From IMG/VR virus record IMGVR_UViG_3300036790_000419, positions 32,001-96,000 of that record: a stretch of 64,000 bases of DNA; one strand, written 5' to 3'. A model generated the notes under the pieces. The model ran no database searches. It saw nothing but the letters and a program-made list of their open reading frames with translations, and had not been told where the DNA came from. This document shows positions 10,938-62,866 of the stretch, one piece after another. A program made the translations under genes and the position numbers. Positions within the stretch are counted from its first letter, which is position 1. Each line of letters begins with the position of its first letter. The stretch is from a virus.

Positions 10938-11045
10938 GGCCTGCTGGAGCAGGATCCCGATGCCCTCGTGCGGGGGCTCATGCTGCTCACCCCGTACCAG
11001 CGAGCCGCGCCGCGGCTCGCGCTCGCCGCGGCCGATTCCCCCGGC

Positions 11046-11327
11046 ATGTCACTGGTTACCAGCGCCGAGCAGGCTGCCGAGAAGGTCTTCCGCGAGGTGG
11101 AGGCCAAGGTTGAGGAGTTCGACGGGGAGGCGCTGGCCGAGGCCCGGCGGCTGCTCGCTGACGCGAAGGCGGCGGAGTCCCGGCTGGTGGTCCTGCTGGG
11201 CAATTACCGGACCGAGATCGGGGCGCTGGTCGCGAAGTACGGGCCGGAGGTCGTGACGGACGTCGACGCCGAGCTGGCGAAGCTGCTGGCCCAGGTCGAG
11301 GGGCTGTTCGGCACCGCCGGGCGGTGA
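11046..11327 (+). CDS. Coiled-coil hypothetical protein
   Basis: ATG 13 nt after CGAT box. Confidence 0.55.
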   Translation: MSLVTSAEQAAEKVFREVEAKVEEFDGEALAEARRLLADAKAAESRLVVLLGNYRTEIGALVAKYGPEVVTDVDAELAKLLAQVEGLFGTAGR

Positions 11328-11752
11328 GGGTCCCCCGTGCGGCTGCCATTATGGGCCTTGCCGACGGCACCACCACCGGCACCGGGCTTTCCCTGGCCCT
11401 GTACATCGCTCACCAGTCGCACCTGGCCGTGTGGCTGGCAGGGCTGTCCGGGGGCCTGGCCGCGTTTCCTGGCATGTCTTCGGGCCGCTATCAGTCGGAC
11501 CCGGGCGACGGCATCGGCGGCGCGGTCGTCTGCGGTGCGGCTACAACTGCCGGATCAGTGCTGGTCGCACTTCCTTTCGCGTTTGCGTCAGGGCGCGCTG
11601 CTCTCCTTGCGGGTGGCCTCGTCACCCTTGCCCTGTGCTCTGTCGTCGCTGTGATAAGGCCGGACACCGGGTGGCGGGCGTGGGCGCTGAGCTACGGGAT
11701 TACCGCCGTAGCGGCCGGGCTGTGCATCGGTGCCGGCGTCATGACGCAGTGA
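11324..11752 (+). CDS. VIT1/CCC1-like membrane protein
   Basis: IMGLADG and GLSGGLAAFPGMSSGRYQS resemble VIT1 family motifs; about 5 hydrophobic segments. Confidence 0.5.
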   Translation: MRVPRAAAIMGLADGTTTGTGLSLALYIAHQSHLAVWLAGLSGGLAAFPGMSSGRYQSDPGDGIGGAVVCGAATTAGSVLVALPFAFASGRAALLAGGLVTLALCSVVAVIRPDTGWRAWALSYGITAVAAGLCIGAGVMTQ

Positions 11753-11765
11753 CGATCGCAGGGGC

Positions 11766-12074
11766 GTGGCGTTCGTCAGGTTCCTGGTCCACTTCTTCGG
11801 CTGTGACTACGGGGCCGCCTACGGGAGGTTCGTCCCCTACGACTTCTGGTCGGGCGTCGCCGGCTCGTTCCTGGTCGGGGTGGTCGTCTTCGGCGGCACC
11901 TGGTACCTGAGCCACACCTGCCACGGGTCGGCGTGGTGCCTGCGCTGGGGAAAGTACCAGGCGGCGGGCGGGACGTTCAAGCTCTGCCGGCATCATCACC
12001 CTGACCTGCGCGGCCAGCGCCCGCACCGCGAACTCATCGAGCGGCTGCACCGCGAGCACCAGGCCCGGACGTAG
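11766..12074 (+). CDS. Membrane protein with Cys/His C-terminal tail
   Basis: One TM segment, then CH..WC..LCRHHHP. Confidence 0.55.
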   Translation: MAFVRFLVHFFGCDYGAAYGRFVPYDFWSGVAGSFLVGVVVFGGTWYLSHTCHGSAWCLRWGKYQAAGGTFKLCRHHHPDLRGQRPHRELIERLHREHQART

Positions 12075-12082
12075 CAGCAGGC

Positions 12083-14875
12083 ATGACGCCCGTCCTGCCT
12101 GACGCTGCCCGGATGTCCCGCGACGCCCGCCGTACCGCTGCCGCCCGCGTCCGGGCCCTGGACGACATCCAGCCGTTCCCCGGGCTGGAGTGGTTCAACT
12201 CCGCGCCGTGCGAGAGGCACGAGTCGCTGAACATCCTGTGCCGCCGCTGCGGCGTCAGGCTGCGCAGGCACCAGCGGATCGGGGCCTCGTGGATGTACCT
12301 GGGGCTCCCGGGCCTGCTGGGCGACACCATGGGGCCTCAACCACTAGACGCCAAGGTGCTGACACCGGGCGGCTGGGCTCTTATGGGAGAGTTGCAGGGC
12401 GGGGACGAGGTAATCGACCCAGACGGTTCGTCGTCGGAGGTCGCTGAGGTCATCCCGCAGGGCACCCAGGACGTCTACCGGATCACGTTCTCGGACGGGA
12501 CCTCGGCTGAGTCCACGCTCGGGCACCTGTGGGAGGTTCGGGGTATGGGCAACGACCGGTACCGGTACAAGACCCGGGTCGGTCGTGAGCAGCGGGACGT
12601 GTCTGCGTGGAAGGTCCGCACGCTGGGCGAGATCCGGGCCCTGAAAGGTAATTTCGCCGTTCCGCTCATGCGACGGGCTCCGGATCTCGCTGTTGCGGAC
12701 GGAACCCTCCCCCTGGACCCTTATTTGCTCGGCCTCCTGCTGGGCGACGGGTCACTGAGCAAGCACACCCCGGAATTCGGCTCTGCGGACCAGGAATTGC
12801 TGACGGCTGCGAAGGAACTTCTCCCGAAAGGCTGGGGCTGGACGTTCACGCAGTATCGCACGGGGTGCGAGTGGTACCGCTTGAACGGCAGTCAGCCCGT
12901 TTTGCGGTCACTCGGCCTGTTCGGCAAGCGGGCCTGGGAGAAGGCGGTTCCCGAGCAGTACAAGTGGGCTTCTGCCGAAGCCCGGCTGGCCCTGCTCCAG
13001 GGGCTCATGGACACGGACGGAAGCTGGGCGGCGTGTGCTGGCGCGGAGTTCGGCTCTGCGTCGCGCCAGCTTGCTGAAGATGTTGCGGATCTGGGCCGTT
13101 CGCTTGGCTTGCGTACGTCGTCGGTGCGGGCCAAGAAGACCAGCTACACCTATAAGGGGGAGAAGCGGCAAGGGCGGGATGCCTACCGGGTAACCGTTGC
13201 TCCCGCGCCTGGCCGGATTCTGTTCCGGCTCGCTCGAAAGGTCCGGCCTGCACCCCGTCAGCGCGCGCACGGGGACATGACCAATGCCGGAGCGCGGTCG
13301 CATCATCAGCGTGACCAGCGGGTCAAGTGGATTCGCACGATCGAGTACGCCCGGACCGTGCCGGTGCAGTGCATCCGGGTGACCGCGCCATCGCAGCTGT
13401 ACGTTACCGATGACTGGACCGTCACCCACAACAGCGGCAAGACCGCCCAGATGCTGGCGATGCTCGCCATGTGCAAGCAGAACGGGGAGCTGGGGCTGCA
13501 CAACCGGGCGGTCATCGTCTGCCGGGCCGCCGCGACCTGGGACCCGTGGGGGAACGAGCTGGGGCGGCTGCTGCCCGGCATCAGCGCCTACGTCGCCGAC
13601 GGCACCCGCGAGCAGCGCATCCGCGGCTACATGGGCAACTGGGAGATCGCGGTCGTGTCCGACCGCACGCTGGGCGGCGCGCACGGCAAGCGGCAGTCCC
13701 GCGAGGGCGACGTGGCACTGCTTGAGCAGTTCCCGGTCGGGATCTTGATCTACGACGACGTGGACCCCCTGCGCAACCACCTCACCGAGACCAGCGCGGC
13801 GGTCAACCGGCTGGCCGCGCAGTGCCGGCGGGTCCACGGGGCGCACGCCACCCCGACGCAGAAGCGCCTGGCGGAGCTGTGGTGCATGGTGCAGCCGGCC
13901 GGCGGCCGGTCGGCCCTCGGGTCACTGGACTACTTCGAGACCAAGTTTTCCGGTCCGGTCTCCAGGACCATCCTCACCCGGGACCCGGACGACCCGACGG
14001 GCCGCCGCCGCGTCCGCAAGAAGGTGCAGCTCGGCAACGGGGGCGGGATCGTCTCCGACCCGAAGAAGGCAGCCGAGCTACGCCGGCTCATCTACCCCCT
14101 GGTGCTGCGGCGCACCGCCAAGGACATCGAGGGTGACGTGGCGATGCCCGCCGTCCAGTACAACCCGGTGTTCCTTGACCTGAACCCGCGCCAGCGGGCC
14201 CGCTACGAGGAACTGCGCCGGGGCACGCTGCGACGGCTCAGGGAAAGCGGCGAGGTGGTCACCCAGACGGAGGCCGCCGCGGCGTTCAACTACGGGTGGC
14301 AGATCTGCAGCGGCCTGGCCGCCATCGACGAGGGGCCGGGGGCTGACGACTCGTGCAAGTTCGACTGGCTGATGAACCTGCTCACCGGCGACCTGAGTGA
14401 CGAGAAGGCGGTCTGCTTCGTCTACTTCAAGAAGAACGTGGCGGCGCTCGCACGGCGGCTGCAGGCCGAGGGCATCGGCGGCGTGCTCATGTGGTCGGGC
14501 GAGACCGACAAGCGCGAGCGGGCCCGCCGGCTGGCGCGGTTCCACGAGGACCCCAAATGCCGGGTGCTCATCGGCACTACCACGATCGAGGCCAGCCTCA
14601 ACTTGCAGGTGGCCCGCCAGGTCGCCCTGGTCGACACCATCCTCAACCCGGCACGGATGGCCCAGATCGTGGGCCGGTGCGCCCGGGTGGGCAGCCAGTT
14701 CCCGACGGTGTACGCGCACCACCTGCTGGCCAGGCACACCCAGGAGGACGCCTACCTGCCGATGCTGCGGCAGGAGGGCGAGATCGCCGACACGGTGTGG
14801 GACGAGAAGCAGAGCCTGTTCACCGCGCTGAGCCCGCGGCAGATCATGCGCCTGGTGGCTTTCGGCAAGCTCTAG
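12083..14875 (+). CDS. SNF2-family helicase with intein
   Basis: LRRHQ, GDTMG[intein]SGKT Walker A, ATP motif III, LRRT, SLNLQ, QIVGRCARVG. Confidence 0.85.
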   Translation: MTPVLPDAARMSRDARRTAAARVRALDDIQPFPGLEWFNSAPCERHESLNILCRRCGVRLRRHQRIGASWMYLGLPGLLGDTMGPQPLDAKVLTPGGWALMGELQGGDEVIDPDGSSSEVAEVIPQGTQDVYRITFSDGTSAESTLGHLWEVRGMGNDRYRYKTRVGREQRDVSAWKVRTLGEIRALKGNFAVPLMRRAPDLAVADGTLPLDPYLLGLLLGDGSLSKHTPEFGSADQELLTAAKELLPKGWGWTFTQYRTGCEWYRLNGSQPVLRSLGLFGKRAWEKAVPEQYKWASAEARLALLQGLMDTDGSWAACAGAEFGSASRQLAEDVADLGRSLGLRTSSVRAKKTSYTYKGEKRQGRDAYRVTVAPAPGRILFRLARKVRPAPRQRAHGDMTNAGARSHHQRDQRVKWIRTIEYARTVPVQCIRVTAPSQLYVTDDWTVTHNSGKTAQMLAMLAMCKQNGELGLHNRAVIVCRAAATWDPWGNELGRLLPGISAYVADGTREQRIRGYMGNWEIAVVSDRTLGGAHGKRQSREGDVALLEQFPVGILIYDDVDPLRNHLTETSAAVNRLAAQCRRVHGAHATPTQKRLAELWCMVQPAGGRSALGSLDYFETKFSGPVSRTILTRDPDDPTGRRRVRKKVQLGNGGGIVSDPKKAAELRRLIYPLVLRRTAKDIEGDVAMPAVQYNPVFLDLNPRQRARYEELRRGTLRRLRESGEVVTQTEAAAAFNYGWQICSGLAAIDEGPGADDSCKFDWLMNLLTGDLSDEKAVCFVYFKKNVAALARRLQAEGIGGVLMWSGETDKRERARRLARFHEDPKCRVLIGTTTIEASLNLQVARQVALVDTILNPARMAQIVGRCARVGSQFPTVYAHHLLARHTQEDAYLPMLRQEGEIADTVWDEKQSLFTALSPRQIMRLVAFGKL
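12335..13432 (+). mobile_element. Class 3-type intein with LAGLIDADG homing endonuclease
   Basis: Starts PQPLDAKVLTP, block B TLGHLW, LLGLLLGDGS and LLQGLMDTDGS, block F VQCI, ends VTHN/S. Confidence 0.85.
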
Positions 14876-15634: not shown

Positions 15635-16018
15635 CTACCGCACGTCCACGGTCGCCCCGGCGACCTGGAGTGCCTCTACGGCCTTTTCCGCGGTCGCGCG
15701 GTCTGCGTTCTCCAGTACGGTGACCGGAGCCCGCTCCACCAGGTCCTTGGCCTCCTTGAGGCCCAGCTTGGTGAAGACCCGGACCTCCTTGATGACCTGG
15801 ATCTTCTTGGGGCCCGCGTCCTCGATGACGACATCGAACTCCGTCTGCTGGTCTTCCTCCTCCGGTGGCGCGTCAGCGACGGCGGGCGGCGTGCCGTTGA
15901 CCGACACGGCGGCGGTCACCCCGAATGTCGTCTCGAAGTCCTTCACGAACTCCGCCAGTTCCAGCACGGTCATTTCCCTGAACGCACCCATCAGGTCGGC
16001 GCTGCTCAGCTTCGCCAT
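15635..16018 (-). CDS. rplL: 50S ribosomal protein bL12 (L7/L12)
   Basis: [49 protein letters not shown]; AAGGAGG SD. Confidence 0.95.
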
Positions 16019-16095
16019 CTGTCCTCCTTGGCCTGATTGTGACCGTCATCGTAGCGGGCTCCCGCTGTCGGTGATGCGTGACGATCACGCGGGAC

Positions 16096-16299
16096 ATGGC
16101 ATCTACACGGGTTGAATGGTTCCTGGCGGCCAAGAAGGCGCTGCGCGCTCACCGGGACTGGACCGACGAGCAGGTGGCGAACCACTGCGGCATCCCGCTC
16201 GCCGTCGCCGGCGAGATCATCCGCCCGGCCCGTCAGGAGGTCGAGCAGGACCAGACGGACCCGGCCTCGCGGCACGCGAAGCGGATGACCGGTGACTGA
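16096..16299 (+). CDS. Small helix-turn-helix-like protein
   Basis: WTDEQVANHCGIP; CGAT box 14 nt upstream. Confidence 0.5.
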   Translation: MASTRVEWFLAAKKALRAHRDWTDEQVANHCGIPLAVAGEIIRPARQEVEQDQTDPASRHAKRMTGD

Positions 16300-16984
16300 G
16301 GCAGAGGTCCGGGCGCGGATCGGCGAGCTGGTCACGGAAATCGTGCCGTCGGCCCGGTCGGAGGCCTACCGGGTGTGGCAGCGCGCCCCGCACGCCCTGG
16401 AGATGGACGAACTCGAAGCCCTGGCCCTGTCGGGCCTGGCCGCCGCTGCGGCCCGCTGGCCCGTGTACTGCGCTTCCCGGGGGTACAGCCCGACGGCCTG
16501 GGAGTTCTTCAGGGCTTACGTGACCAGGCGCATGCGGGGCGCGATGCTCGATCACCTGCGGTCGCAGGACTGGGTGACCCGCAGTGCCCGGACCAGGGCC
16601 AAGGCGCTGCGCGAGGCAGGCCAGGACCGCGGGCTGAGCGACGCCGAGCTGGCACGGGCGACGGGCATGGGCATCGACGAGGTGCGTGCCACCGCCGCCG
16701 CCGTCTCCGCGCGCCCGGTGTCGATCGACGCCGAGCCCTACGACGTGGCCGGGACCGACGACGTGGAGGGCCAGGCCGTGGTGTCGCAGGTCCTCGCCGC
16801 GATGACGGGAGTGATTAGCCGCCTGAGCGATCACGGGCGCGTGATACTGGTTTTGCACTATTACCAGGGCATGACCGTCCCCGAGCTTGCCCCGTACGTC
16901 GGCGTAACACCAGATGAGGCCGCCAGGCTTCACCAGGAGGCGATCCTGGAGTGCCATCGGGCAATGCTGGGGGTAGTGGCGTGA
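16292..16984 (+). CDS. RNA polymerase sigma factor, FliA/WhiG-like
   Basis: AYVTRRMRGAMLDHLRSQDWVTRSAR is the sigma28-family region 2 signature; region 4 ILVLHYYQGMTVPELA. Confidence 0.85.
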   Translation: MTEAEVRARIGELVTEIVPSARSEAYRVWQRAPHALEMDELEALALSGLAAAAARWPVYCASRGYSPTAWEFFRAYVTRRMRGAMLDHLRSQDWVTRSARTRAKALREAGQDRGLSDAELARATGMGIDEVRATAAAVSARPVSIDAEPYDVAGTDDVEGQAVVSQVLAAMTGVISRLSDHGRVILVLHYYQGMTVPELAPYVGVTPDEAARLHQEAILECHRAMLGVVA

Positions 16985-25612: not shown

Positions 25613-25678
25613 TTAGGGGAGAGATCCTGTGCTCCCGATTGAACGTGACACTGCCCCCGTCACGTCAGGAGAGTCGCC

Positions 25679-26164
25679 GTGGTCCACCCGAACGGCCAGC
25701 CCCGCAAGGCCAACCGCAAGCAGCCTGGCGACGGCCGGGTGCCGGGCCCGCCGCCCGGCCGCCCGGTGGCGCAGGGGCAGCTTCCCCAGGCGCAGCAGGC
25801 TAGGGTTGCCCAGCCACCGGTCCCGCCGTCGCTGGAGGGCCTCTCTGCCGAGTTCGAGGCCCTCATCGCCTCAAACCAGGCCAAGTTCGCCGAACTCGCC
25901 GCGCAGGGCGCCGCGCCCGACCCGTTTTTCCTGGTGCACGCCCGGATCAACCACCTGATTGACGCCATCGCGCAGGCGACCGGCCCCAGCGGGCCGCGCT
26001 GGGCGGCGATGACCCGGCTCGGGTTCGAGAAGTACATCGCGGGCGAGCTGGAGCAGGCTGGCCCGGCCACCCGGCGCATGCAACTGGCTGAGGGAGCCCG
26101 CTACACGCCCGCGATGATCCGCGCCCTGGCTGCCCAGACGGGAACACTGCGCCATCCGCAGTAG
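25679..26164 (+). CDS. Hypothetical protein
   Basis: AGGAG SD; codon bias. Confidence 0.55.
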   Translation: MVHPNGQPRKANRKQPGDGRVPGPPPGRPVAQGQLPQAQQARVAQPPVPPSLEGLSAEFEALIASNQAKFAELAAQGAAPDPFFLVHARINHLIDAIAQATGPSGPRWAAMTRLGFEKYIAGELEQAGPATRRMQLAEGARYTPAMIRALAAQTGTLRHPQ

Positions 26165-27289: not shown

Positions 27290-27295
27290 GTGAGC

Positions 27296-29836
27296 ATGGA
27301 CGCTGACCTTGAGGGCCTGTCAAGCCACGAGCTGGCTGAAGTTCAGCTTGAGGCGAAGCTCAAGGGGGCCCCGAGCTACGCCCTGCTTACCGACCTGGAC
27401 GAGATCCGTGCCCGCGTGCACGCGCTCATCGCGGAGAAGAAGCCGTTCGGTTTCGACTGTGAAACAGGGTACCTGGGGGACTCGCGCGAGGGCGCGTCGC
27501 TGCACGCGGAAGAGAACCTCCTGGTGGCCTACCAGTTCACCAACAGCCTGGACTGGGCCCGGATGATCCCCCTCGGGTTCGACTCCGGGCCGAACGTCGA
27601 CAACAAGGCGGCGGCGGCCCTGCTGTGGGAGATGCACCACGCGACTGACGACGAGGGCCGCCCTCTCGGGGTGGCGCACGGCGCTATCGCCGAGCTGCGG
27701 TGGATGGCCCGGTGGTTCCTGCGCCACTTGTGGGACCACCCGCTGTTCGGCCGCCAGGTCCGCGAGGCGCACGGCTACTACCCGGTCAGGTCGTGCACGC
27801 TGCTGGAGAGCTTCGCTGAGGGGGTCAACCAGTTCCACGGCCTCAAGGCGTCCACGTTCGACAACTACGGGCACCGGATGCGCGAGCTGACTGACGGGTC
27901 GGACAGCCTGCTGGGCCGGCTGCTGGGCCGGGTGCCGACCAAGAAGGAGAAGAAGTCGGTCCGGTTCAACGTCTTCGACCCCAGTGACCCGGAGGTCACC
28001 GCCTACGCGTGCGAGGACGCGGTGTGGTGCCTGCGCCACCACGCTGACCGCTGGCCGAAGGTGCGGGACACGTTCATCTACAAGGTCGAGATGAACGTGC
28101 TGCCCGTTGTCTGCGCGATGACAGATGCCGGGCTCGCCTACGACTGGAACCTGATGCGGGCCAAGGCGGCGGAGGCCAGTGACTTCTGCGCCCGGCTGCT
28201 CGCGGAGGTCATCGAGGACTTCGAGGAGCTGGCCGGGGAGAAGCTGCCCCCGGACTTCAACTTCAACAGCAACGCGCAGTTCGCGGACCTGCTCTACGGC
28301 AAGTGCGGCATGCCGGTGCTGCACAAGACTCCCGGCGGCAAGCCCAGCGTGGACGCCAAGAACGCGCTGCCCGGCCTGGCCGGGAAGTACCCGCAGGTCA
28401 AGAAGTACATGGGCTGGAAGAAGCTCACCGACCTGCAGGTCAAGTTCCTGAACAGCTACGAGACGGCCTTCTGCTGGGCGGCCGACGGGCGCGCGCACCC
28501 GACCCTCAACCAGCACGGCACCATCGGCGGCCGGTTCGCCTGCGAGGACCCAAATTATCAGCAATCGCCCAAGAAGTACCATTACGAGCTGCGCGACGGC
28601 ACGGTGTTCGACTTCAACTTCCGCGACGTCATCATCGCGGCCCGGCCCGGAGGCCGTCCCTGGTGGGAGTGGGTACTGCTGGACGCGGGATGCACGGACC
28701 TGCCGGAGCCTGACGGGCACGGGTACTACGTGCTCGGGTTCGACTACAGCCAGATCGAGCTGCGGGTCATGGCCGGCGAGGCTGGCGAGACCGCGCTGCT
28801 GGAGGCGTTCGCCCGCGGCGAGGACGTGCACAGCCGCACCGCCGCGCTGATGCTCGGCATCCCGTTCGAGCAGGTGACCGAGGATGCGAGAGCTGTCGGG
28901 AAGACGAGGAACTTCGCGTCGATCTACGGCCAGGGCATCAGGGCGCTCGCGGACCAGCTCGGCATCAGCGAGGACGAGGCCCGGGAGAAAGACCTGCAGT
29001 ACAAGACCGCGCACCCGCACATGGGCCCGTACCGGAACAAGATCATCGCCCGCGCCCGCCGCGACGGGTACATCACCACCAAATTCGGCCGCCGGATCAC
29101 TCTTCACCGGATCAGGGACGAGAACCCCAGGGTCCGGGCGGCCGAGGAGATGACCGCTGGCAACGCGGTCATCCAGGGCCCGGCTACCGGCGAGTACGTC
29201 AAGGTGGCCATGGTGCGCGCGGTGCGCGCCCTGGAGAAGGCCGGGCTGTCCGGCCGGGTGCGACTGGTCATGAACATCCACGACGCCCTGGAGTTCGAGG
29301 TGCGCAAGGACGTGCCCCCGATCGAGGTCATGAGCGTGCTGCAGCCCGCGGTCGTCTACCCGGTCACCGGCCCGGGTGAGCCGTGGCCGGAGATGGTCGC
29401 CGAGTGGCACCTGGGCGGGTCCTGGGGCTCGGTGAAGGACATCCACACCGAAGACGGCCGGATCGTGCTCGGCAAGAAGGACAAGTGCGAGCGCTGCCGC
29501 CCGGCCTCCGCGCCGGAGCCTGTTCCCGTAGTCGCCGGGCGGCCGGAGCCCCCGGTTCCCGCCCCTGAGCCTGGCCTGCCCCGCAACGTCATCGTGGTGG
29601 CCCGTGAGACACCGTCGCGCGAGCAGGTGACGCGGCTGGCCGGCTTCCTGCGGAAGCTGCCCGGCCGGAACCTGGTGGAGCTGCACCTGCCTGACGGGAA
29701 CATCCCGGTTAAGTTCCCCTGCGGCCTGTCGCCGGCGCACGAGTCGCACGTGGCGGTCATCCTCGGCGGCGCTGCGGTGCACTACGCGGCGGACTCCGTG
29801 GACGATCGCGCGCTTACCGCCGGCCTCGGGTTGTAG
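27296..29836 (+). CDS. polA: DNA polymerase family A with 3'-5' exonuclease and extra C-terminal domain
   Basis: FDCET (ExoI), YACEDA (ExoIII), FDYSQIELR (motif A), KTRNFASIYG (motif B), IHDAL (motif C). Confidence 0.92.
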   Translation: MDADLEGLSSHELAEVQLEAKLKGAPSYALLTDLDEIRARVHALIAEKKPFGFDCETGYLGDSREGASLHAEENLLVAYQFTNSLDWARMIPLGFDSGPNVDNKAAAALLWEMHHATDDEGRPLGVAHGAIAELRWMARWFLRHLWDHPLFGRQVREAHGYYPVRSCTLLESFAEGVNQFHGLKASTFDNYGHRMRELTDGSDSLLGRLLGRVPTKKEKKSVRFNVFDPSDPEVTAYACEDAVWCLRHHADRWPKVRDTFIYKVEMNVLPVVCAMTDAGLAYDWNLMRAKAAEASDFCARLLAEVIEDFEELAGEKLPPDFNFNSNAQFADLLYGKCGMPVLHKTPGGKPSVDAKNALPGLAGKYPQVKKYMGWKKLTDLQVKFLNSYETAFCWAADGRAHPTLNQHGTIGGRFACEDPNYQQSPKKYHYELRDGTVFDFNFRDVIIAARPGGRPWWEWVLLDAGCTDLPEPDGHGYYVLGFDYSQIELRVMAGEAGETALLEAFARGEDVHSRTAALMLGIPFEQVTEDARAVGKTRNFASIYGQGIRALADQLGISEDEAREKDLQYKTAHPHMGPYRNKIIARARRDGYITTKFGRRITLHRIRDENPRVRAAEEMTAGNAVIQGPATGEYVKVAMVRAVRALEKAGLSGRVRLVMNIHDALEFEVRKDVPPIEVMSVLQPAVVYPVTGPGEPWPEMVAEWHLGGSWGSVKDIHTEDGRIVLGKKDKCERCRPASAPEPVPVVAGRPEPPVPAPEPGLPRNVIVVARETPSREQVTRLAGFLRKLPGRNLVELHLPDGNIPVKFPCGLSPAHESHVAVILGGAAVHYAADSVDDRALTAGLGL

Positions 29837-30650: not shown

Positions 30651-30673
30651 CAGGCAGCGCCGATCGTGGCGGC

Positions 30674-30835
30674 ATGAAGGCGACAGAGGCGATCGAGGAA
30701 ATCGAGCGCGCCGTGCATGAGTTCGGGGACTACGAGCTGCAGATTCCCGACCCGGTTGAGCGCTGGTGGTACCCGGTGGACCGGATTGAGGTCGTACCCG
30801 AGGTGCAGGCAATCAGGGTTGTCTCTGATCACTGA
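30674..30835 (+). CDS. Small hypothetical protein
   Basis: ATG 13 nt after CGAT box. Confidence 0.5.
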   Translation: MKATEAIEEIERAVHEFGDYELQIPDPVERWWYPVDRIEVVPEVQAIRVVSDH

Positions 30836-36772: not shown

Positions 36773-36813
36773 TTCCCGATACTGCCTGCTGAGTCGACAG
36801 GCGGGAGCCCGGG

Positions 36814-37815
36814 ATGTCCAACGCGGCCGGGGAAGACCGGAGCAGCTTCCAGAGGGTCAGCTCCTGGGGCGGGAACGCGTTCGCGTTCGCTAAGGCCACC
36901 GAGGGGACTAACTGGTCTGATCCCGCGTTCGCGTCCAACTGGGCGGGCGCGGCGGCCCAGGGCAAGGTCCGCGGGGCCTATCACTTCTTCCACCCCGCCG
37001 ACAGCCCGTCGGCGCAGGCGCAGTTCTTCGTGTCGTCCGTCAAGGCTCACGGCCTGCGCGCGGGCGACGTCCTCATCGCGGACGTGGAGATCGCGGTCGG
37101 CGAGAGAACGGAGACTTACGGCACCTGGCAGGCCTCGGCCCGCTCGCACGAGGGGCTGAAGGGCGCCGCGCCGCACCTGAGTGCCGCCTCGGTGGGGCCG
37201 GGCGCGCTGCAGTTCCTGCAGGACGTGGCGGCCCTGGCCGGGCCGCACTGCAAGGTGCTGCTCTATACCGACGTCTCCATGGCGCAGAGCCTGCTGGGGG
37301 CGTGCTCGGGCTACCCGCTGTTCATCGCTTACTACGCGTCCGCCCCGGTCGCGCCCGCGCCGTGGAAGACGTGGACCTTCTGGCAGAACGGGGCCAAGGG
37401 CCCGGGCGGCGGGGACCTCGACTACTTCAACGGGAACGAGGCCGCGCTGGCGAAGTGGGCGAATCCGGCCCCTGCCCCCCTGCCGCCCGGCTGGGTGTAC
37501 CCGCCGGTGCAGAAGCTGACCGCGGCCGGCGGGGAGACCAGCGTACGGCTGAGCTGGGACGCGCCCGTCCAGCCGCCCGGTGAGGCCCCGATGCCTGGCA
37601 TCGGCTGGTACCAGGTCGCCGTTACGCGGGGCCCGAGGCTGGAGGGAGCGCAGCTGGCGAGCTACCCGAGGTGGGTGCGCAAGGGCAGCAACCCCGAGGC
37701 GTGGCAGGGCGGCTCGATCCCGCGCGGGACGCAGTGCACGGCGGGCGTGCGCGCGGCTGACGAGAGCAAGCAGCACGCCCCGGCGTGGGAGACGGTGACG
37801 TTCAGCACGACGTAG
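36814..37815 (+). CDS. GH25 muramidase (endolysin) with C-terminal FN3-like domain
   Basis: FAKATEG, RGAYHF, ADVE, LLYT, WTFWQ, DLDYFNG. Confidence 0.85.
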   Translation: MSNAAGEDRSSFQRVSSWGGNAFAFAKATEGTNWSDPAFASNWAGAAAQGKVRGAYHFFHPADSPSAQAQFFVSSVKAHGLRAGDVLIADVEIAVGERTETYGTWQASARSHEGLKGAAPHLSAASVGPGALQFLQDVAALAGPHCKVLLYTDVSMAQSLLGACSGYPLFIAYYASAPVAPAPWKTWTFWQNGAKGPGGGDLDYFNGNEAALAKWANPAPAPLPPGWVYPPVQKLTAAGGETSVRLSWDAPVQPPGEAPMPGIGWYQVAVTRGPRLEGAQLASYPRWVRKGSNPEAWQGGSIPRGTQCTAGVRAADESKQHAPAWETVTFSTT

Positions 37816-49776: not shown

Positions 49777-49929
49777 ATGGACCTGCCCGACGATGAGAAG
49801 CAGGGCCTGGGCGAATGGGAGCTGGACTGCGCGGCCCGGCTGCAGTCCGAGTACGGCGTCAGTTACGGCAAGGGCTGGGTGCGCCTGACGACAGAGCCCG
49901 GCTGCCCGCATCACGGGGCGCCCGATTAG
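49777..49929 (+). CDS. Small hypothetical protein
   Basis: Fills the gap; codon bias. Confidence 0.35.
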   Translation: MDLPDDEKQGLGEWELDCAARLQSEYGVSYGKGWVRLTTEPGCPHHGAPD

Positions 49930-49935
49930 AGGTGC

Positions 49936-50376
49936 GTGGCTAGCAACTGGGACAAGTTCGACGGGCTGTTCACCTGCCCGAAGAGCGTAGAGGACGGCGA
50001 CCTGCGCACCTCTTACGAGGAGTTCTACTCGACCGCGCGCGGCGAGTGCGAGGGCCTGGACATGTCGTCGGCACAGGTCATGCGCACCAGTGTGATGCTC
50101 AACTGGTTCTTCAAGCACCAGCAGACTTCCCGGCGCGGCTACGGCACCGACGACGGCTACCAGCACCCGGGCCAGGAGAAGGACGCGATCCTGGCCTGGG
50201 AGCAGATCGCCAAGACCTGGGACGACGTCCGGCTGAAGAGCCGCCGCGCCGACCCCGGCGGCATGGCCCCGGAGAAGGTCCGCGACGTCTTCCTGCTGGT
50301 GCTCAGCCAGGTGGAGGACCCTGGCCTGCGCGCCGTGCTGCAGGACAAGTTCGTTGAGGCGCTGAGCGGGGCCTGA
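49936..50376 (+). CDS. Hypothetical protein
   Basis: GTG 13 nt after CGAT box. Confidence 0.6.
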   Translation: MASNWDKFDGLFTCPKSVEDGDLRTSYEEFYSTARGECEGLDMSSAQVMRTSVMLNWFFKHQQTSRRGYGTDDGYQHPGQEKDAILAWEQIAKTWDDVRLKSRRADPGGMAPEKVRDVFLLVLSQVEDPGLRAVLQDKFVEALSGA

Positions 50377-50839: not shown

Positions 50840-50861
50840 GCCGCCGGGCGATTACCAGGGC

Positions 50862-52397
50862 ATGGCGGGAGCCCTGGAGCTGCTGGAGGCCGAGCACGAG
50901 ACGCGCGAGGCGCACGGGCACCTCATGCGCGAGTGCCCGTGGTACCAGCACGTCGCCAAGGGCGGCCGGGACCATCCTGACCTGCATTGCAGGCCCGCAA
51001 CAGGTGGTGAGGGCGGCGCGCTGGTCAAGTTCACCCCGCGCACCCCGGAGGCGTCCACGGTCGTCAAGCCGACGGTGCCCCCGGGCGGCCCCGGCCTGTT
51101 CCACATGAAGGGCCATCATCTTCCCGCCTACGTGGAGCACCTGTACCCGCACCTGGTAGCCAGGTACGGCAAGCAGGAGGCGTACAAAGTTGCCGTCGGG
51201 GTGGTCAAGAAATGGGCAGCGGGCGTCAACCCGGGCGGTAAGCGCCCGACGAAGACGCATCCCGATGTCCGGGCCGCCGCCGCGAAGAACGTGGCCGAGT
51301 GGGAGAAAGAGAAAGCCGAGGCGCACGAGCACCGTGCCGCCACCTCGGCCGTCGAGCTGGCGGTGGCGACCGCTCCGGGTGCGCGCCCGTTCCTCCTGCC
51401 GTCGCCACCTGGCGGACGGTATTCCCAGTACGGGATGTACCAGAACCCGGTGCAGGCCGTCAGTCCCAGCCCGCCGCTGCCGCCGGCCGTGACCCTGCCG
51501 ACCGCGGCCGAGGTGCGCGCGGTCATCCCGCTGGTGCCTGACTGCAGCGATGCCAGCCTGTCGGCGACCGCGCGCAAGTTCCTGGAGCAGGCCGCCTGGA
51601 AGCTGAACAAGGACGACCCGCTCGCGGCCCTCGCCGTGATGCGCAGCGCCGAGACGGCCCTGTACGCCGCGCACAAGGCCGACCAGGGGAACATGCTGCC
51701 CTCGGCTTACACCGCCAACGTGTTCACCCGCGTCCCGCCGGCCGCCCAGTCGTCGGCGACCACGGTGATGAAGCAGGGCTACGACAAGATGCTGGCGTGG
51801 CGGAAGGCGGAGCAGGCGCTGGGCGCGCTGTCCGACCGCATCCGCAAGCGGTACTTCCACGGTGTTTTCTCGGGCCCTTCGCAGATGGCCCGGATGACGG
51901 AGGGTGACATGAGCGCACTGGACAAGCTCGCGCTGGCCGTGGTGACGGGCAAGGACGTCTCCGAGCCCGCGGAGTCCGACACCTCGGGCGCGGCGCCGCT
52001 CATCCAGCCGCCCGAGGACCTGCTGAACATCACCGACCCGGACGCGTCGCGCGAGCTGGCCGCGCTGCCCGTGCTCGACAAGGCACGGGTGAGTGCCTAC
52101 CTGGCCAGGGCCCGGGACATGCGCCGCACCAACCCGGCCGGGGCCGCCCAGTCCGCGATGCGGGCCGCCATGGTCGCGAAGGAGTCCGGGGCGCACGACC
52201 TGGCCCGGCACATCCGCCACCACGTCCAGGCGCTGGCTGACACGGGCAACATGACCGTCACCGCGGACGCCGCCGGGCGGATGCAGGCCGGCGGGAAGGC
52301 CGTCAGCCCGCGTGACAGCCCGGGGCCGTCCTCCGACAACCCGAACGGCCCGGCGAAGCTGAGCGCGGTGGACGCGCTGCTCGCCGCTGCCCGGTAG
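50862..52397 (+). CDS. Putative virion/head morphogenesis protein
   Basis: ATG 13 nt after CGAT box; upstream of terminase. Function inferred from context. Confidence 0.55.
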   Translation: MAGALELLEAEHETREAHGHLMRECPWYQHVAKGGRDHPDLHCRPATGGEGGALVKFTPRTPEASTVVKPTVPPGGPGLFHMKGHHLPAYVEHLYPHLVARYGKQEAYKVAVGVVKKWAAGVNPGGKRPTKTHPDVRAAAAKNVAEWEKEKAEAHEHRAATSAVELAVATAPGARPFLLPSPPGGRYSQYGMYQNPVQAVSPSPPLPPAVTLPTAAEVRAVIPLVPDCSDASLSATARKFLEQAAWKLNKDDPLAALAVMRSAETALYAAHKADQGNMLPSAYTANVFTRVPPAAQSSATTVMKQGYDKMLAWRKAEQALGALSDRIRKRYFHGVFSGPSQMARMTEGDMSALDKLALAVVTGKDVSEPAESDTSGAAPLIQPPEDLLNITDPDASRELAALPVLDKARVSAYLARARDMRRTNPAGAAQSAMRAAMVAKESGAHDLARHIRHHVQALADTGNMTVTADAAGRMQAGGKAVSPRDSPGPSSDNPNGPAKLSAVDALLAAAR

Positions 52398-52440
52398 TCC
52401 GATTACCCGGAGCGGAATCCGCACGCTCCCGGGAGGCACG

Positions 52441-53253
52441 GTGTCACTGGATAAGATCCTCGCCCTGGCTGGGGCTGTCCCCGAGGCCCCGGACCTGGAC
52501 GCTGAGCTGCTGCTCGCTGTCCAGGTGGCGAGCGGGGAGCTGGCCCTGCTGCTGGCGTCCGATGACGACAGCGGCGATGAAGACCGAGGCCGCGGGGACA
52601 AGTCCGGCAAAGACGGCGACGACGAGGACAGCAGCGGCGGAGAGCATTCTGGCCACGCTACCTACAAGGCGATGGTCAAGAGGAACATCCCGCCGAAGAG
52701 GGCCGCGGCGATGTGCGCCAAGTCAGACAAGAACGTCAAGGCCTCCCAGCTGGCGAATTCGCTGGCGGTGCTGCTGGCCGGCGAGCCGGGCCGGGACATC
52801 TCGCTGGTCACCCTTACCCCGGACAGCGAGACCGCCGAAGGGCGCAAGAAGGCCGCCTCCTCCGGGCATGCCCTGGCCGACGGGTCATATCCAATAGAGG
52901 ACAAGAAGCACCTGCACTCGGCCGCGGTGCTCGCTGCTTCCGGGCACGGCAACGCCTCGGCCGCCAAGGCGCTGATCCGCAAGCGGGCCAGGGAGCTGGG
53001 GGTGGACGTGAACACGCTGCCCGGGTTCGGGGGGTCCGGCAAGGAGAACGACAAGGCCGCCGCGTCGATGGTGGCCCTGGCCAAGCAGGCGGGCGGCGGG
53101 GTCGCGATGCACCACGCGCCGATGACCGGCACCCACAGCCACGCGCACGCGGTCGGCGCGACGCACGAGCACGACCACCAGCACTTCGGCGACAACAACC
53201 ACAGCGGCGGCCCGCTGCACCGTCCGGGCTCCGAGCCGCGAAGGGACTGGTAA
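52441..53253 (+). CDS. Putative head-associated protein with His-rich tail
   Basis: ALADGSYPIED..LHSA..IRKRARELG motif; GGGAGG SD; CCGATTA box at 52399. Confidence 0.55.
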   Translation: MSLDKILALAGAVPEAPDLDAELLLAVQVASGELALLLASDDDSGDEDRGRGDKSGKDGDDEDSSGGEHSGHATYKAMVKRNIPPKRAAAMCAKSDKNVKASQLANSLAVLLAGEPGRDISLVTLTPDSETAEGRKKAASSGHALADGSYPIEDKKHLHSAAVLAASGHGNASAAKALIRKRARELGVDVNTLPGFGGSGKENDKAAASMVALAKQAGGGVAMHHAPMTGTHSHAHAVGATHEHDHQHFGDNNHSGGPLHRPGSEPRRDW

Positions 53254-55573: not shown

Positions 55574-55777
55574 GTGCCGTGGTTCCGCCGCAAGCCGTTC
55601 CGGCTCCTGTGCCCGTACTGCGGCAGCTGCTTCTTCTGGGCCCGGGTCAGCCTGGCACGCAAGGGGTACGACCGGCCCCCGGCCATCACCTCGCTGCGCT
55701 ATGACCTGACGTGTGACGATTGCGGCTTCGTGGCCGATTACCAGGATTTCATTGACCAGCACCGGGGCTGGCTGTGA
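55574..55777 (+). CDS. Zinc-ribbon protein
   Basis: CPYCG..CDDCG. Confidence 0.5.
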   Translation: MPWFRRKPFRLLCPYCGSCFFWARVSLARKGYDRPPAITSLRYDLTCDDCGFVADYQDFIDQHRGWL

Positions 55778-59349: not shown

Positions 59350-59350
59350 C

Positions 59351-59424: not shown

Positions 59425-59432
59425 CTAGCCTG

Positions 59433-59655: not shown

Positions 59656-59658
59656 CAC

Positions 59659-59731: not shown

Positions 59732-59825
59732 CGCAGAGCCTGCTACGCGGGAGACGGCCATTGCCAAAGCAGGTACTCTGAGGTCCGCGCCGGGAGCTGG
59801 CTGAAATCCGCTCGGCAGGACGCAA

Positions 59826-59899
59826 GCCCCTCTCGACTAGCGGTCCAGGTCGCCTGCCTTTCAAGCAGGATGACACCGGTTCGAATCCGGTGGGGGGAA
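59826..59899 (+). tRNA. tRNA-Glu(TTC)
   Basis: Cloverleaf; 1:72 mismatch. Confidence 0.8.
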
Positions 59900-59930
59900 C
59901 GAGGGCCTCCGGGGTAACCTGGGGGCGCGA

Positions 59931-60008
59931 CGCGGAGTAGGGGAGTTCGGTTGTCCCCGCGGCGCTTTCATAACGCCGAGATCGCGGGTCCGAATCCCGC
60001 CTCCGCCA
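59931..60008 (+). tRNA. Initiator-like tRNA-Met(CAT) with 9-nt anticodon loop
   Basis: CGCGGAG start with C1 mismatch; loop CTTTCATAA; T loop TCCGAAT. Confidence 0.65.
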
Positions 60009-60099
60009 CGAGGCCCGGCACTGGCGGCCGGCGAAAGCCCCGGGGAATACGTGGCTGGCCCTGCTGGATAAGGGCTAAACAGCCGGGGGCCTCAGTCGA

Positions 60100-60172
60100 T
60101 CCGGCGTAGCTCAATCGGCAGAGCAGCGTCCCGTTAAGGCGAGGGTTCCCAGTTCGAGTCTGGGCGCCGGAG
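60100..60172 (+). tRNA. tRNA-Asn(GTT)
   Basis: Cloverleaf; C33. Confidence 0.85.
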
Positions 60173-60277
60173 CGCGTCAGTCTGGGATACGAGGGGCAGC
60201 AGCCCTGCCGCGGCCCGCGCGGCGGTCGCCGAAGCGGGACGAGTGCCGGGGCTCCCCAGTCAGCCGCCGGCACACAT

Positions 60278-60353
60278 GGTCTTGTAGGGGAGCCTGGCCG
60301 TCCCCGCCGCCCCGTCAAGGCGAAGATCGCGGGTTCGAATCCCGCCAGGACCG
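60278..60353 (+). tRNA. tRNA-Asp(GTC)
   Basis: Cloverleaf; C33. Confidence 0.85.
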
Positions 60354-60377
60354 CTTTCTCACCCGGGGCCGGGGCGT

Positions 60378-60512
60378 TTAGACACCGGAGCGCTTGCGCC
60401 GCTCGCCCAGCTCGGTCCGCCCGAGCCGGTACAGGGCGCGGTAGCCGCCGAGCCTCAGCCCGATCCAGATGCCGGAGCCGAAGGCGATGACCAGGAGGAT
60501 GAAAATGCCCAC
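60378..60512 (-). CDS. 44-aa single-pass membrane protein antisense to the tRNA array
   Basis: MGIFILLVIAFGSGIWIGLRLGGYRALYRLGRTELGERRKRSGV*; operator variant at 60534-60549. Confidence 0.55.
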   Translation of the reverse strand: MGIFILLVIAFGSGIWIGLRLGGYRALYRLGRTELGERRKRSGV

Positions 60513-60554
60513 GTGATTAAACGGTACCTGGTTCTTTACCAGTGTCTAGGCACT

Positions 60555-60629
60555 GCCCCTGTAGCTCAACGGGAGAGCGCCGTCTCGACAAGGCGGAGGG
60601 AGGTGGTCCGACACCACCTAGGGGCACCA
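60555..60629 (+). tRNA. tRNA-Val(GAC)
   Basis: Cloverleaf with CCA; C33, T loop TCCGACA. Confidence 0.75.
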
Positions 60630-60630
60630 T

Positions 60631-60704
60631 GCACTAGTAGCTCAGCGGACAAGAGCAGCGGCCTACGGAGCCGCGTGGCGGGGGTTCGAGTCCCTCCTAG
60701 TGCA
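60631..60704 (+). tRNA. tRNA-Arg(ACG)
   Basis: Cloverleaf. Confidence 0.9.
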
Positions 60705-60715
60705 CGCGAGTACAA

Positions 60716-60787
60716 GGGCGCATAGCTCAGCGGAAGAGCGCTCGGTTCACACCCGAGAGGCCGGCGGTTCGATCCCTTCTGCGCCCA
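60716..60787 (+). tRNA. tRNA-Val(CAC)
   Basis: Cloverleaf. Confidence 0.9.
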
Positions 60788-60788
60788 C

Positions 60789-60863
60789 GGTCGGTATAGC
60801 TCAACGGCAGAGCGCTGGACTGTGGCTCCAGACATACGAGTTCGATTCTCGTTACCAACCCCA
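60789..60863 (+). tRNA. tRNA-His(GTG)
   Basis: G-1, C73, CCA. Confidence 0.88.
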
Positions 60864-60864
60864 T

Positions 60865-60948
60865 GGCGGAGTGACCCGAGATGGCAAGGGGGCCGGCTGT
60901 AAACCGGCTGCGCGAGCATGGCAGGTTCGAGCCCTGCGTCCGTCACCA
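60865..60948 (+). tRNA. tRNA-Tyr(GTA)
   Basis: Long variable arm, CCA. Confidence 0.9.
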
Positions 60949-60949
60949 A

Positions 60950-61023
60950 GGTCTCATAGCTCAGTGGAACAGAGCACCCGCCTCCGGAGCGGGGGGCCGG
61001 CGGTTCGAGTCCGTCTGAGACCA
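60950..61023 (+). tRNA. tRNA-Arg(CCG)
   Basis: Cloverleaf. Confidence 0.9.
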
Positions 61024-61111
61024 CGACTGAGTTCACCGCCGTGACCTGGCAGCGGGTAGCGGTGGGCCAGTAAAGCGGGGCGTGCTGCCGGCTACGCCTG
61101 CCCCGTCCAAT

Positions 61112-61187
61112 GGCGGTATGGCCGAGTGGTACAGGCGCACGCCTGCAAAACGTGCTTACCCGGGTCCGATTCCCGGTGCCGCCTCCA
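61112..61187 (+). tRNA. tRNA-Cys(GCA)
   Basis: U73, CCA; T loop TCCGATT; C31:A39. Confidence 0.82.
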
Positions 61188-61188
61188 G

Positions 61189-61261
61189 GACCCTGTAGCT
61201 CAGCGGACAGAGCTGCTTCCCCCTAAGGAGCGAGTCGCTGGTTCGAGTCCAGCCAGGGCCG
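61189..61261 (+). tRNA. tRNA-Arg(CCT)
   Basis: Cloverleaf; C33. Confidence 0.82.
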
Positions 61262-61394
61262 CCTTCGGTGCTCACGCTGTGGCAGCCTGGAGACGGGAGA
61301 CCGGGTACGGGCTCGGCTTCGCGGGTCTGAGATCGTTTCCGGTCTCCCGTCACACCAGGGTACATGCACATCACTGCGTTACGCTGGCCCTATT

Positions 61395-61431
61395 ACTCCC
61401 TGTTGTCCTCTTGAGGCTGACAGGGGTTTTT
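61395..61431 (+). terminator. Intrinsic terminator after the tRNA array
   Basis: CCCTGT...ACAGGG hairpin followed by T run. Confidence 0.6.
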
Positions 61432-61542
61432 GCGTTCCGGTCACGTTTTGAGGGAAACAGTTCCGCCGGCCGGCGGGGTGCGACATAGTGGACTGTTTCC
61501 CCGTGACAAGCACAGGGGGCCTATGAGTGAGGGGTTTTACCT

Positions 61543-62478
61543 ATGAAGCTCAGCAGGCGGCTTGCTGCCGTCATTGCGGTACCTGCCCTGGCGCTGGGGA
61601 CCGGGCTGGCCGCGGCCGGCACCGCGCACGCCGCGCCAGGTGTCACCCAGCCCGCTGTGACCGACACCTGGGGTTTCGCCGGCGACGAGGCCGCGGCTAA
61701 CTCCGGGACCAATTTCACCCACTTCTCCGCCCTGGTCGGCGCGGGCACGCAGTACAGCGCGGCCAACCCGGCGCTGCCGTCTGTCGGCAGCGTGCTGAAC
61801 GGCGCGGGCTCCGCCTGGCACCCGGTACCGCTGAGCGGCTCGCTGGGCAGGGCGCTGGCCTCGGTTGAGGCTGCGGGCCTGCAGTTCGGCGCGCACGGCA
61901 GCGAGACCGCCTCGCTGGGCGTGCTGCGGGCTGGCAGCCGCAATGACGTGGTGGCCGTCATCACCGGCCACGGCAGCCTTTCCTACGCGGTGCTGGCCTC
62001 CTACCCGGTGGCGGACACCGTCGGCCTGGACCTGCTGCACGACGGCAGATCGGCCTACACGTTCCGTGGCCGGCACATCCAGGCTGGCGCGGTGGCGTTC
62101 AGCACCGAGGACGTCCGCGCCGGCATCAGCTCGGTGAAGACGATCGACAGCTCGCACGTCAGCGGCGGCGTCATCAGCGGCGGCTTCCACACCGCCCTGG
62201 GCGGCATCCTGTCCGGTGCCCGCGCGGCGCAGGGCGGCGTCAGCGCGTTCGCCTCTGACCCGGTGCCCGACACCGCCGGCGGCATCGTGGTCCGGCTGGC
62301 GCACCTGCACCTGGACGCCAACGCCACCGCGGGCGAGACCTTCTCCGAGGGCTTCCAGTCCGGCGCGGCCTGGGCGGTCATCCCGTACGCGGCCTCGGTG
62401 AGCAACCGCACCGTCGCGGAGTCCACCGTCTTCGCCTCCGACCACATCTCGGTCGCGGAGCTGAGCACGCAGCACTAG
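61543..62478 (+). CDS. Secreted protein with signal peptide
   Basis: MKLSRRLAAVIAVPALALGTGLAAAGTAHA/A signal peptide; GC hairpin at 62496-62529 after stop. Confidence 0.7.
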   Translation: MKLSRRLAAVIAVPALALGTGLAAAGTAHAAPGVTQPAVTDTWGFAGDEAAANSGTNFTHFSALVGAGTQYSAANPALPSVGSVLNGAGSAWHPVPLSGSLGRALASVEAAGLQFGAHGSETASLGVLRAGSRNDVVAVITGHGSLSYAVLASYPVADTVGLDLLHDGRSAYTFRGRHIQAGAVAFSTEDVRAGISSVKTIDSSHVSGGVISGGFHTALGGILSGARAAQGGVSAFASDPVPDTAGGIVVRLAHLHLDANATAGETFSEGFQSGAAWAVIPYAASVSNRTVAESTVFASDHISVAELSTQH

Positions 62479-62550
62479 CCAGCCCTGTCTCACGCGGGCA
62501 GCCCCGGGCGACGTCGCCCGGGGCTGCCTGTGCTTCCCGATTAACCGGGC

Positions 62551-62850
62551 ATGCACCTCACGGGAATGTGGCACGAGTTCATGGCCGCCGCCGGCAATGC
62601 CCCGGGCGCGCAGAAGGGTGACGTCATCGTCACCCTGATGGACCCGGTCGGCGGGGTCGGCGAGGTCACGGTCCCCAGCAGTGACGTGACCATCGCGGCC
62701 GAGGCCGGCAACCTGATCGGCGTGCAGCTCAAGATGCCGGACGGGCGCCGCCTGTTCGTGTCCGCAGCCAACCTGGCCGGCATGATCGACGCGCCGCGCG
62801 AGGAGGCCCGGGAGGACAAGCCGGCCCGGGCGCGGCAGCCTGGCAGGTAG
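62551..62850 (+). CDS. Hypothetical protein
   Basis: ATG 13 nt after the CGAT of a CCGATTA box. Confidence 0.6.
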   Translation: MHLTGMWHEFMAAAGNAPGAQKGDVIVTLMDPVGGVGEVTVPSSDVTIAAEAGNLIGVQLKMPDGRRLFVSAANLAGMIDAPREEAREDKPARARQPGR

Positions 62851-62866
62851 CCCCGATTAAGGGGGC

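Follow-up and report, generated by a model that had tools for sequence, protein, structure and literature searches.

A CGAT box thirteen nucleotides before start codons of an uncultured soil phage, and its probable reading by a phage-encoded FliA/WhiG-type sigma factor

The stretch of DNA analyzed here, a window of 64,000 nucleotides, comprises bases 32001–96000 of the 148,913-bp genome of an uncultured soil phage (IMG/VR virus record IMGVR_UViG_3300036790_000419). It carries a short sequence, CGAT, at a fixed distance upstream of several start codons, and it also carries the gene for a sigma factor of the FliA/WhiG type (16292–16984; 230 amino acids), which is the candidate for reading this box. 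The genome has a G+C content of 70%, and nearly all of its genes lie on the + strand: calling by codon-position GC over the whole genome yielded 194 genes, 187 of them on that strand. A nucleotide search of the phage against cultured phages gave no match, and PHROGs and Pfam assign nothing to most of the box-led genes. Relatives were found via the sigma gene, which led to five contigs of 124–152 kb whose sigma factors are 63–83% identical. Coordinates are those of the window and features lie on the + strand unless stated otherwise; the first base of a start codon is counted as +1.

A preceding reading of the letters alone (the sequence-only reading) had placed CGAT(T/C) exactly 13 nt before ATG or GTG at 11033, 11753, 30661, 49923, 50849, 62538, and 62854, which held for seven of seven sites; at each, the six bases of the box are followed by 7 nt and the start codon. 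These sites are of the predicted leaderless type. CGATTC with ATG 11046 (11033–11048) opens gene 11046–11327; the box is kept at the orthologs in the genomes G001 and G002, and AGGAGG precedes the same ATG in G003, which confirms this start codon. CGATCG with GTG 11766 (11753–11768) opens gene 11766–12074, after which the helicase gene follows (12083–14875); this box is retained in G003 and lost from G002. CGATCG with ATG 30674 (30661–30676) leads a gene for a 53-aa protein (30674–30835), and G001 and G002 have kept both box and protein. The remaining four boxes read CGATTA. That with GTG 49936 (49923–49938; gene 49936–50376) contains the TAG stop codon of the preceding gene and is conserved in G001, G002, and G003. 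That with ATG 50862 (50849–50864; gene 50862–52397, 511 aa) is kept in G001; in G002 and G003 the same ATG has neither a box nor a Shine-Dalgarno (SD) sequence, and the upstream frame seemingly runs up to it. The box at 62538, which belongs to ATG 62551 (62493–62553; gene 62551–62850), is separated by 5 nt from an 18-bp GC-rich hairpin (62493–62532) with an energy of −43.4 kcal/mol. Its orthologs have a hairpin of different sequence, then the box; as the hairpin in the window fails the T-tract rule, no terminator was called. Finally, the box with ATG 62867 (62854–64000) opens the portal gene (phrog_113, E = 2.7e-22), which runs off the window; box and portal start are conserved in G002 and G003.

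Other boxes stand farther from their genes, behind which an SD sequence is present. Two of them had been described before and were found as such, CCGATTA at 52399 leading to a GTG with GGGAGG, and CCGATAC at 36776 leading to an ATG with GGGAG. The first (CGATTA, 52400–52443) lies 41 nt before GTG 52441 of gene 52441–53253 and is present in all four genomes compared (as CGATAA in G003), its short leader being mostly conserved as well. The second (CGATAC, 36777–36816) lies 37 nt before ATG 36814 of a GH25 endolysin gene (36814–37815; PF01183, E = 1.8e-27). The designation of the latter as a lysin gene is thus borne out; that of gene 52441 as a head gene is unverified, with zero matches to head families and the major head gene lying outside the window. 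A third leadered box, absent from the sequence-only reading, is CGATTG 43 nt before GTG 25679 (25636–25681). It is intergenic, keeps the same distance to the GTG in all four genomes, and is followed by a leader with a hairpin and the SD sequence AGGAGA; the operon that it heads includes the DNA polymerase gene (27290–29836; phrog_17, E = 1.5e-70). Hairpins were observed in box-driven leaders at 25644–25667 and at L048:19535–19570. The former is nearly unchanged in G001 and G002 and not evident in G003; the latter is retained in relatives with a different stem sequence. Such leader hairpins may be regulatory or stabilizing 5′ structures.

The sigma operon itself also begins with a box that the sequence-only reading did not contain. 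CGATCA at 16082–16087 lies 14 nt before ATG 16096 of a 67-aa open reading frame (ORF; 16096–16299, the whole feature spanning 16082–16299) that overlaps the start of the sigma gene by 8 nt and for whose product, a co-transcribed protein, Pfam has no match. Box and ATG are kept in four genomes (CGATCA or CGATTC, at 13–14 nt), with a spacing of exactly 13 and ggcATG in G003; ahead of the ATG, conservation of the frame is lost. The 16082 box is proposed, on the basis of these sequence features, to be an autoregulatory promoter of the sigma operon.

The position of the box deviates far from what chance would give. With the start of the longest ORF taken for each gene, and hence blind to the motif, CGAT stood at −13 in 12 of the 187 + strand genes of the genome, compared with a mean of 0.64 and a maximum of 3 for the control offsets between 4 and 60 (Poisson P = 6e-12 for offset 13). 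In the window only, the corresponding numbers are 4–5 of 80 genes versus 0.4 (P about 1e-4). The more detailed pattern CGATY-N5-GGC-RTG, which fits six of the seven sites listed first, has six matches in the window, all on the + strand, whereas dinucleotide shuffles gave 0.25 on average and 2 at most. The same was seen irrespective of any gene call: CGAT followed by RTG was counted 13 times at offset 13 on the + strand of the window versus about 4 times at other offsets, and 31 versus about 9 times genome-wide, the peak at offset 13 being confined to the coding strand. CCGATTA occurs 15 times on the coding strand of the genome and once on the opposite strand. Six further offset-13 matches in the window are intragenic (13458, 16828, 31058, 47223, 49527, and 55717) and look like chance background. 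The existence of the box as an element positioned well beyond chance is confirmed.

Two further copies were noticed elsewhere. One CCGATTA (55734–55740) lies inside a small gene (55574–55777), about 620 nt before a tRNA array; its position is not conserved in the relatives, and it might drive the array. At bases 107510–107560 of the genome (L048:11510–11560), a box is followed at +13 by a mini-ORF of seven codons, whose TGA shares bases with a GTG (GTGA) in the frame of a long downstream ORF. Judged by its sequence, this appears to be a leaderless mini-ORF to which the real gene is coupled.

The relatives carry the box in the same arrangement. In the five contigs, box-plus-start counts on the coding and the other strand were 5:0, 6:0, 8:0, 12:1, and 15:0, and a reversed pattern used as control gave 0–2 per strand. 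In two actinophages whose portal is distantly similar and for which tblastn gave no homolog of the sigma factor, the box was matched 1 and 0 times. Across 39 ortholog pairs, sequence identity was 0.39 between −50 and −16, 0.81 between −14 and −9, 0.36 at −7, and 0.90 at −1, and CGAT was retained at −13 in 31 of the pairs. The box at orthologous starts is thus kept while its flanks are randomized. At a few orthologous starts a canonical SD sequence stands in place of the box; box and SD sequence are alternatives at such starts.

A sequence logo was built from 59 sites in four genomes, in which CGAT is invariant through site selection. Counted from the first base of the start codon, the box reads (−14)CCGATTA(−8): C at −14 in 73% of the sites, then C−13, G−12, A−11, T−10, T−9 (90%), and A or G at −8. 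Outside the box, C−6 (73%), G−2, C−1 (83%), and a purine at +1 stand out. Position −7 is not conserved, with T in only 1 of the 59 sites, and −12 is always G. The box therefore resembles a GCCGATAA-like −10 element: it has C/G at −13/−12 and A at −11, and prefers T or A at −9 and A or G at −8. In the open complex of sigma-28 from P. aeruginosa, the −10 element is (−15)GCCGATAA(−8), A−11 is flipped, and −7 is neither flipped nor conserved (PMC12784957). The phage box shares this register and the blank position −7, which supports a sigma-28-type −10 element, a match of register that is valid only if transcription begins on the start codon's first base. In actinobacteria, a transcription start site (TSS) usually has C at −1 and a purine at +1 (PMC3898074).

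Upstream of the box, the earlier statement that no clear TAAA −35 is visible proved right for the 59 sites of the four genomes, which hold zero information beyond −15. A TAAA-type −35 element about 15 bp upstream was not found, and a k-mer search for an upstream element with flexible spacing gave no enrichment, only GC-rich coding-like words. At two boxes a strong hairpin ends 5–15 nt before the box, which excludes space for a further promoter element there. The boxes had also been described as mostly lacking an SD sequence between box and start codon, and the energies of the duplex with the anti-SD sequence agree with this: −2.0 kcal/mol for box-led starts versus −6.45 kcal/mol for other starts (P = 2.5e-6). 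An SD sequence is thus missing before box-led start codons, as expected for leaderless mRNA.

The protein encoded at 16292–16984, previously called a FliA/WhiG-like sigma factor, is indeed a full-length, diverged FliA/WhiG relative: it matches TIGR02479 (FliA_WhiG) with 87.8 bits over profile positions 2–219 of 224, and among solved structures those of E. coli FliA (6pmi_F) and of a WhiG-type sigma factor from actinobacteria (6pfv_A) come closest to it. The residues that read the −10 and extended −10 elements, Y76, R80, R82, D87, D93, and R97 in P. aeruginosa numbering, are all present and invariant in four members of the clade. In sigma-28, R80 and D87 read G−12 and C−13, and R97 reads the extended −10 (PMC12784957). 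At the positions of the −35 readers S224 and Q228 stand D208 and R212, likewise invariant in the clade, and the missing TAAA −35 fits this change; in sigma-28 the −35 contact is essential, and exchanging Q228 for alanine cripples the holoenzyme (PMC12784957). Clustering at 90% identity divides the sigma family into at least 229 clusters, of which most come from soil metagenomes and many lie on contigs of about 150 kb; the automatic JGI label for its members is FliA. Next to the sigma operon, two features were observed. A homolog of ribosomal protein L7/L12 is encoded divergently (15635–16018, − strand; PF00542, 81.9 bits; PF16320, 45.1 bits), and ATTGTGACCGTCATCG lies between the two (16036–16051), is kept in four genomes, and does not recur elsewhere in the genome. 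Judged by its location, ATTGTGACCGTCATCG may serve as a promoter or operator for the initial activation of the sigma operon.

Microbacterium phage Magritte (OR553905), a cultured relative, has a portal protein 50% identical and a homolog of the sigma factor 29–31% identical to those of the soil phage. This homolog is gp47 (L033:2749–3489), annotated as “DNA binding protein”; it has F for Y76 and T for R82, and keeps the remaining −10-reading residues. Of the CCGATAT copies in Magritte, seven lie on the coding strand and one on the opposite strand. Five copies have CCGATATCCCTGA in common, and in three of the five cATG follows, so that CGAT stands at −13. Two of these three ATGs are independently annotated starts, that of the scaffolding gene (18374) and that of gene 98 (70419). 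The third (5353) is in frame with gene 9, whose annotated start is 5332, and the box predicts that gene 9 starts at ATG 5353. The other two boxes precede leaders with GAGGA or GAAGGAG, behind which genes 23 and 88 begin at their annotated starts. Magritte extends the depth of the system; it belongs to the same broad lineage and is not fully independent.

Within the soil phage genome, boxes lead or precede the genes for the portal, the head maturation protease, the major head protein, the tail fiber, and the endolysin, and the sites cluster in the virion module at 94–141 kb of the genome. Variants of the box also stand at the head of the operons for the helicase (11753), the DNA polymerase (25636), and the sigma factor. 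In the sequence-only reading the sigma factor had been assigned leaderless late transcripts. The reading of the box as a promoter stood up, through its register, the residues of the sigma factor, and the relatives; “late” is too narrow, because of the boxes before these three operons, and a regulon of everything after the early block fits better. CGATTA was found in none of the 5 boxes of the replication module and in 14 of the 20 boxes of the lysis and virion modules (Fisher P = 0.009), a difference that suggests graded promoter strength. The box on the sigma operon would imply positive feedback. The first 43 kb of the genome have zero box sites at gene starts. Upstream regions in this part (genome 1–43000) have other motifs, namely AAGGGCAGGCAC, present in 16 of them, and CTTGACTCAAGTCAAGA; it is a separate early class without CGAT boxes.

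From the motif, its position and conservation, the residues of the sigma factor, and the lack of SD sequences, we infer where transcription would start, which sigma factor would read the box, and when. We consider it probable (about 0.7) that the box is the −10 element, and the sole specific element, of promoters read by the host core RNA polymerase (RNAP) together with the phage FliA/WhiG-type sigma factor. CCGAT(T/A)N would then be the only sequence-specific promoter element; the sigma factor would read C−13, G−12, and a flipped A−11 in the manner of sigma-28, plus C at −14, and would have given up reading a TAAA −35. Transcription would start at a purine that follows a C, 7 nt behind the box. 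At about two thirds of the promoters, this purine would be the A or G of the start codon itself, resulting in a leaderless mRNA for which an SD sequence is unneeded; the remaining promoters would produce a leader of 20–100 nt with a normal SD sequence. About 25 promoters would serve the virion genes (portal, protease, major head, tail fiber), the endolysin gene, and the replication and sigma operons. The helicase, DNA-polymerase, and sigma operons would use the weaker variants CGATC and CGATTG, and the sigma factor would feed back positively on its own operon. Each computational test able to contradict a promoter agreed with one, which supports this reading. A broader picture is put forward only tentatively: that a FliA/WhiG-derived sigma factor without a −35 may run, from a box of 7 bp, nearly the whole post-early program of a lineage of soil actinophages that is both large and abundant, with RNA starting on the start codon, one box for each leaderless cistron, box quality grading replication versus virion genes, and the sigma factor sustaining itself by feedback.

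Several points weigh against a −10-only promoter read by this sigma factor. Among 21 copies of CCGATTA without a start codon at +13, only 8 have C followed by a purine at exactly +12/+13, with a background of 18%, and some of these copies are plainly intragenic; the C and purine at this position of leadered boxes are thus only suggestive. Hairpins upstream of boxes are overall not significantly enriched (P = 0.07), and a terminator hairpin before the box was rejected as a general rule at that value. The curated FliA_WhiG cut-off is 189.6 bits, which the phage protein does not reach despite its full-length match, so it is a diverged relative and not a curated member of the family. That a relative of sigma-28 works without a −35 is an unproven assumption; it might need a co-factor. 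The phage also encodes a second sigma factor, of the extracytoplasmic function (ECF) type (genome 11274–11978, in the early region outside the window; TIGR02937, 51.8 bits, above the cut-off), for which a search against cultured phages gave no match. Because of its presence, the co-occurrence of box and sigma gene does not single out the FliA-like protein. Magritte, too, has a weak second sigma-like match. As Magritte and the five relatives form one lineage, part of their agreement reflects common descent.

The frequent location of the preceding stop codon within the box was reason to consider a signal for coupling or reinitiation. In such a case the box would act in the RNA, as a signal for SD-independent initiation or for termination and reinitiation, comparable to the start-associated sequence (SAS) of Cluster K mycobacteriophages, which has a core resembling an SD sequence and a presumed role in translation. 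The fixed distance to the start codon would fit, as would the stop codons in or next to the box (CGAT followed directly by TAA or TAG; a GTGA overlap) and the swapping of box and SD sequence at orthologous starts. However, the box has no complementarity to the anti-SD sequence, and boxes conserved in four genomes also lie 37–116 nt upstream of SD-led starts, namely those of the endolysin, major head, and tail-fiber genes, of the DNA-polymerase operon, and of a 220-aa protein that is 97–99% conserved; in several leadered cases the leader sequence diverges among the genomes. The endolysin box is present in all four genomes, leadered in three of them and leaderless at exactly −13 in G003, and with this switch it acts like a promoter rather than a signal for translation. 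Moreover, several box-led genes are 72–540 nt away from the preceding ORF, and at others a strong hairpin lies just upstream, so that coupling is impossible there. Register and per-position profile are those of a −10 element, C at −1 with a purine at +1 is the setting of an actinobacterial TSS, and taken together an action in the RNA appears very improbable. That the box is an artefact of chance or composition, arising from a high-GC genome and the choice of start codons, can be set aside almost entirely. About 4 CGAT-N9-RTG matches per strand of the window are expected, and the six within genes look like such matches, but for the boxes as a whole this origin is rejected by the shuffles, the counts at control offsets, the bias between strands, the test on starts picked without regard to the motif, and the conservation at orthologs.

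If the box is a promoter element, a sigma factor other than the FliA/WhiG-type protein of the phage could recognize it. A WhiG/FliA-type factor of the host might do so while the phage protein does otherwise or supplements it, given that the box matches a host-type CGAT core and that actinomycete hosts commonly carry WhiG. We regard this as unlikely: the sigma-28 holoenzyme needs a TAAA-type −35 (PMC12784957), which the phage promoters do not have. The phage, in addition, keeps a sigma factor with intact −10 readers and changed −35 readers, and places a box of its own before the sigma operon. Quite improbable, in our estimate, is a reading by the phage ECF factor or by a principal or ECF sigma factor of the host. 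A second phage sigma factor does exist, and some ECF −10 elements begin with CG. Promoters of the actinobacterial principal sigma factor also have no conserved −35 (PMC3898074). The near absence of T at −7, the hallmark of TANNNT, and the constant G at −12 nevertheless argue against the principal sigma factor, and an ECF sigma factor would require an AAC-type −35, none of which was found at the boxes. Moreover, no homolog of the phage ECF factor was found in Magritte by tblastn, yet Magritte has boxes.

A −10 element read by the phage FliA/WhiG-type sigma factor would have consequences for annotation and beyond. With the rule “CCGAT(T/A)N plus 7 nt”, start codons can be settled on which gene callers and annotators disagree, such as that of Magritte gene 9, and Magritte gp47 could be named as a FliA-like sigma factor. 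With at least 229 sigma clusters, mostly from soil, the rule would apply to many uncultured phages. If true, the proposal would describe a natural group-3 sigma factor working from a −10 element alone, and a phage that exploits the leaderless translation of actinobacteria for its virion genes. The pair of box and sigma factor could serve as a compact orthogonal expression switch in high-GC bacteria; Magritte and its host are both cultured.

A phage-encoded alternative sigma factor with its own promoter class is of a kind already known, and in the literature searched no phage FliA/WhiG-type sigma factor with CGAT-box promoters is described. The late promoters of T4, read by gp55 (TATAAATA, −10 only), and the cascade of gp28 and gp33/34 in SPO1 likewise rely on phage sigma factors that redirect the host RNAP, and in T4, too, a single −10 box precedes many late genes. 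Sigma lineage and box sequence are, however, unrelated to those described here, T4 requires gp33 and the sliding clamp, and the transcripts are leadered. With the SAS of Cluster K mycobacteriophages, the phage box shares a short motif at a fixed short distance before many starts; it differs from SAS in having no anti-SD complementarity and in standing also far upstream of SD-led starts. Leaderless transcripts account for about a quarter of the genes of M. tuberculosis, and those of actinobacteria resemble the predicted ones in the TSS on ATG or GTG, C−1, purine +1, T+2, and an unconserved −35 (PMC3898074). They differ in that TANNNT and the principal sigma factor are used there, whereas CCGATTA is found here and T at −7 is nearly absent. 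There is also a close likeness in promoter architecture to the class-3 flagellar promoters of sigma-28 (FliA/SigD), TAAA-N15-GCCGATAA (6PMI; PMC12784957), with which the box has the CGA core, A−11, C at −13/−14, the register from −15 to −8, and the blank −7 in common, and whose −10-reading residues are conserved in the phage protein. In contrast to sigma-28, the phage system has no −35, has S224 and Q228 replaced, prefers T over A at −9, is phage-borne, and is predicted to be mostly leaderless. Streptomyces sigma-WhiG, acting at the whiH and whiI promoters, is of the same family, and its region 2.4/3.0 helix is almost identical to that of the phage sigma factor; but WhiG is a developmental host factor with few, bipartite promoters, while about 25 promoters, each with a −10 element only, would depend on the phage factor.

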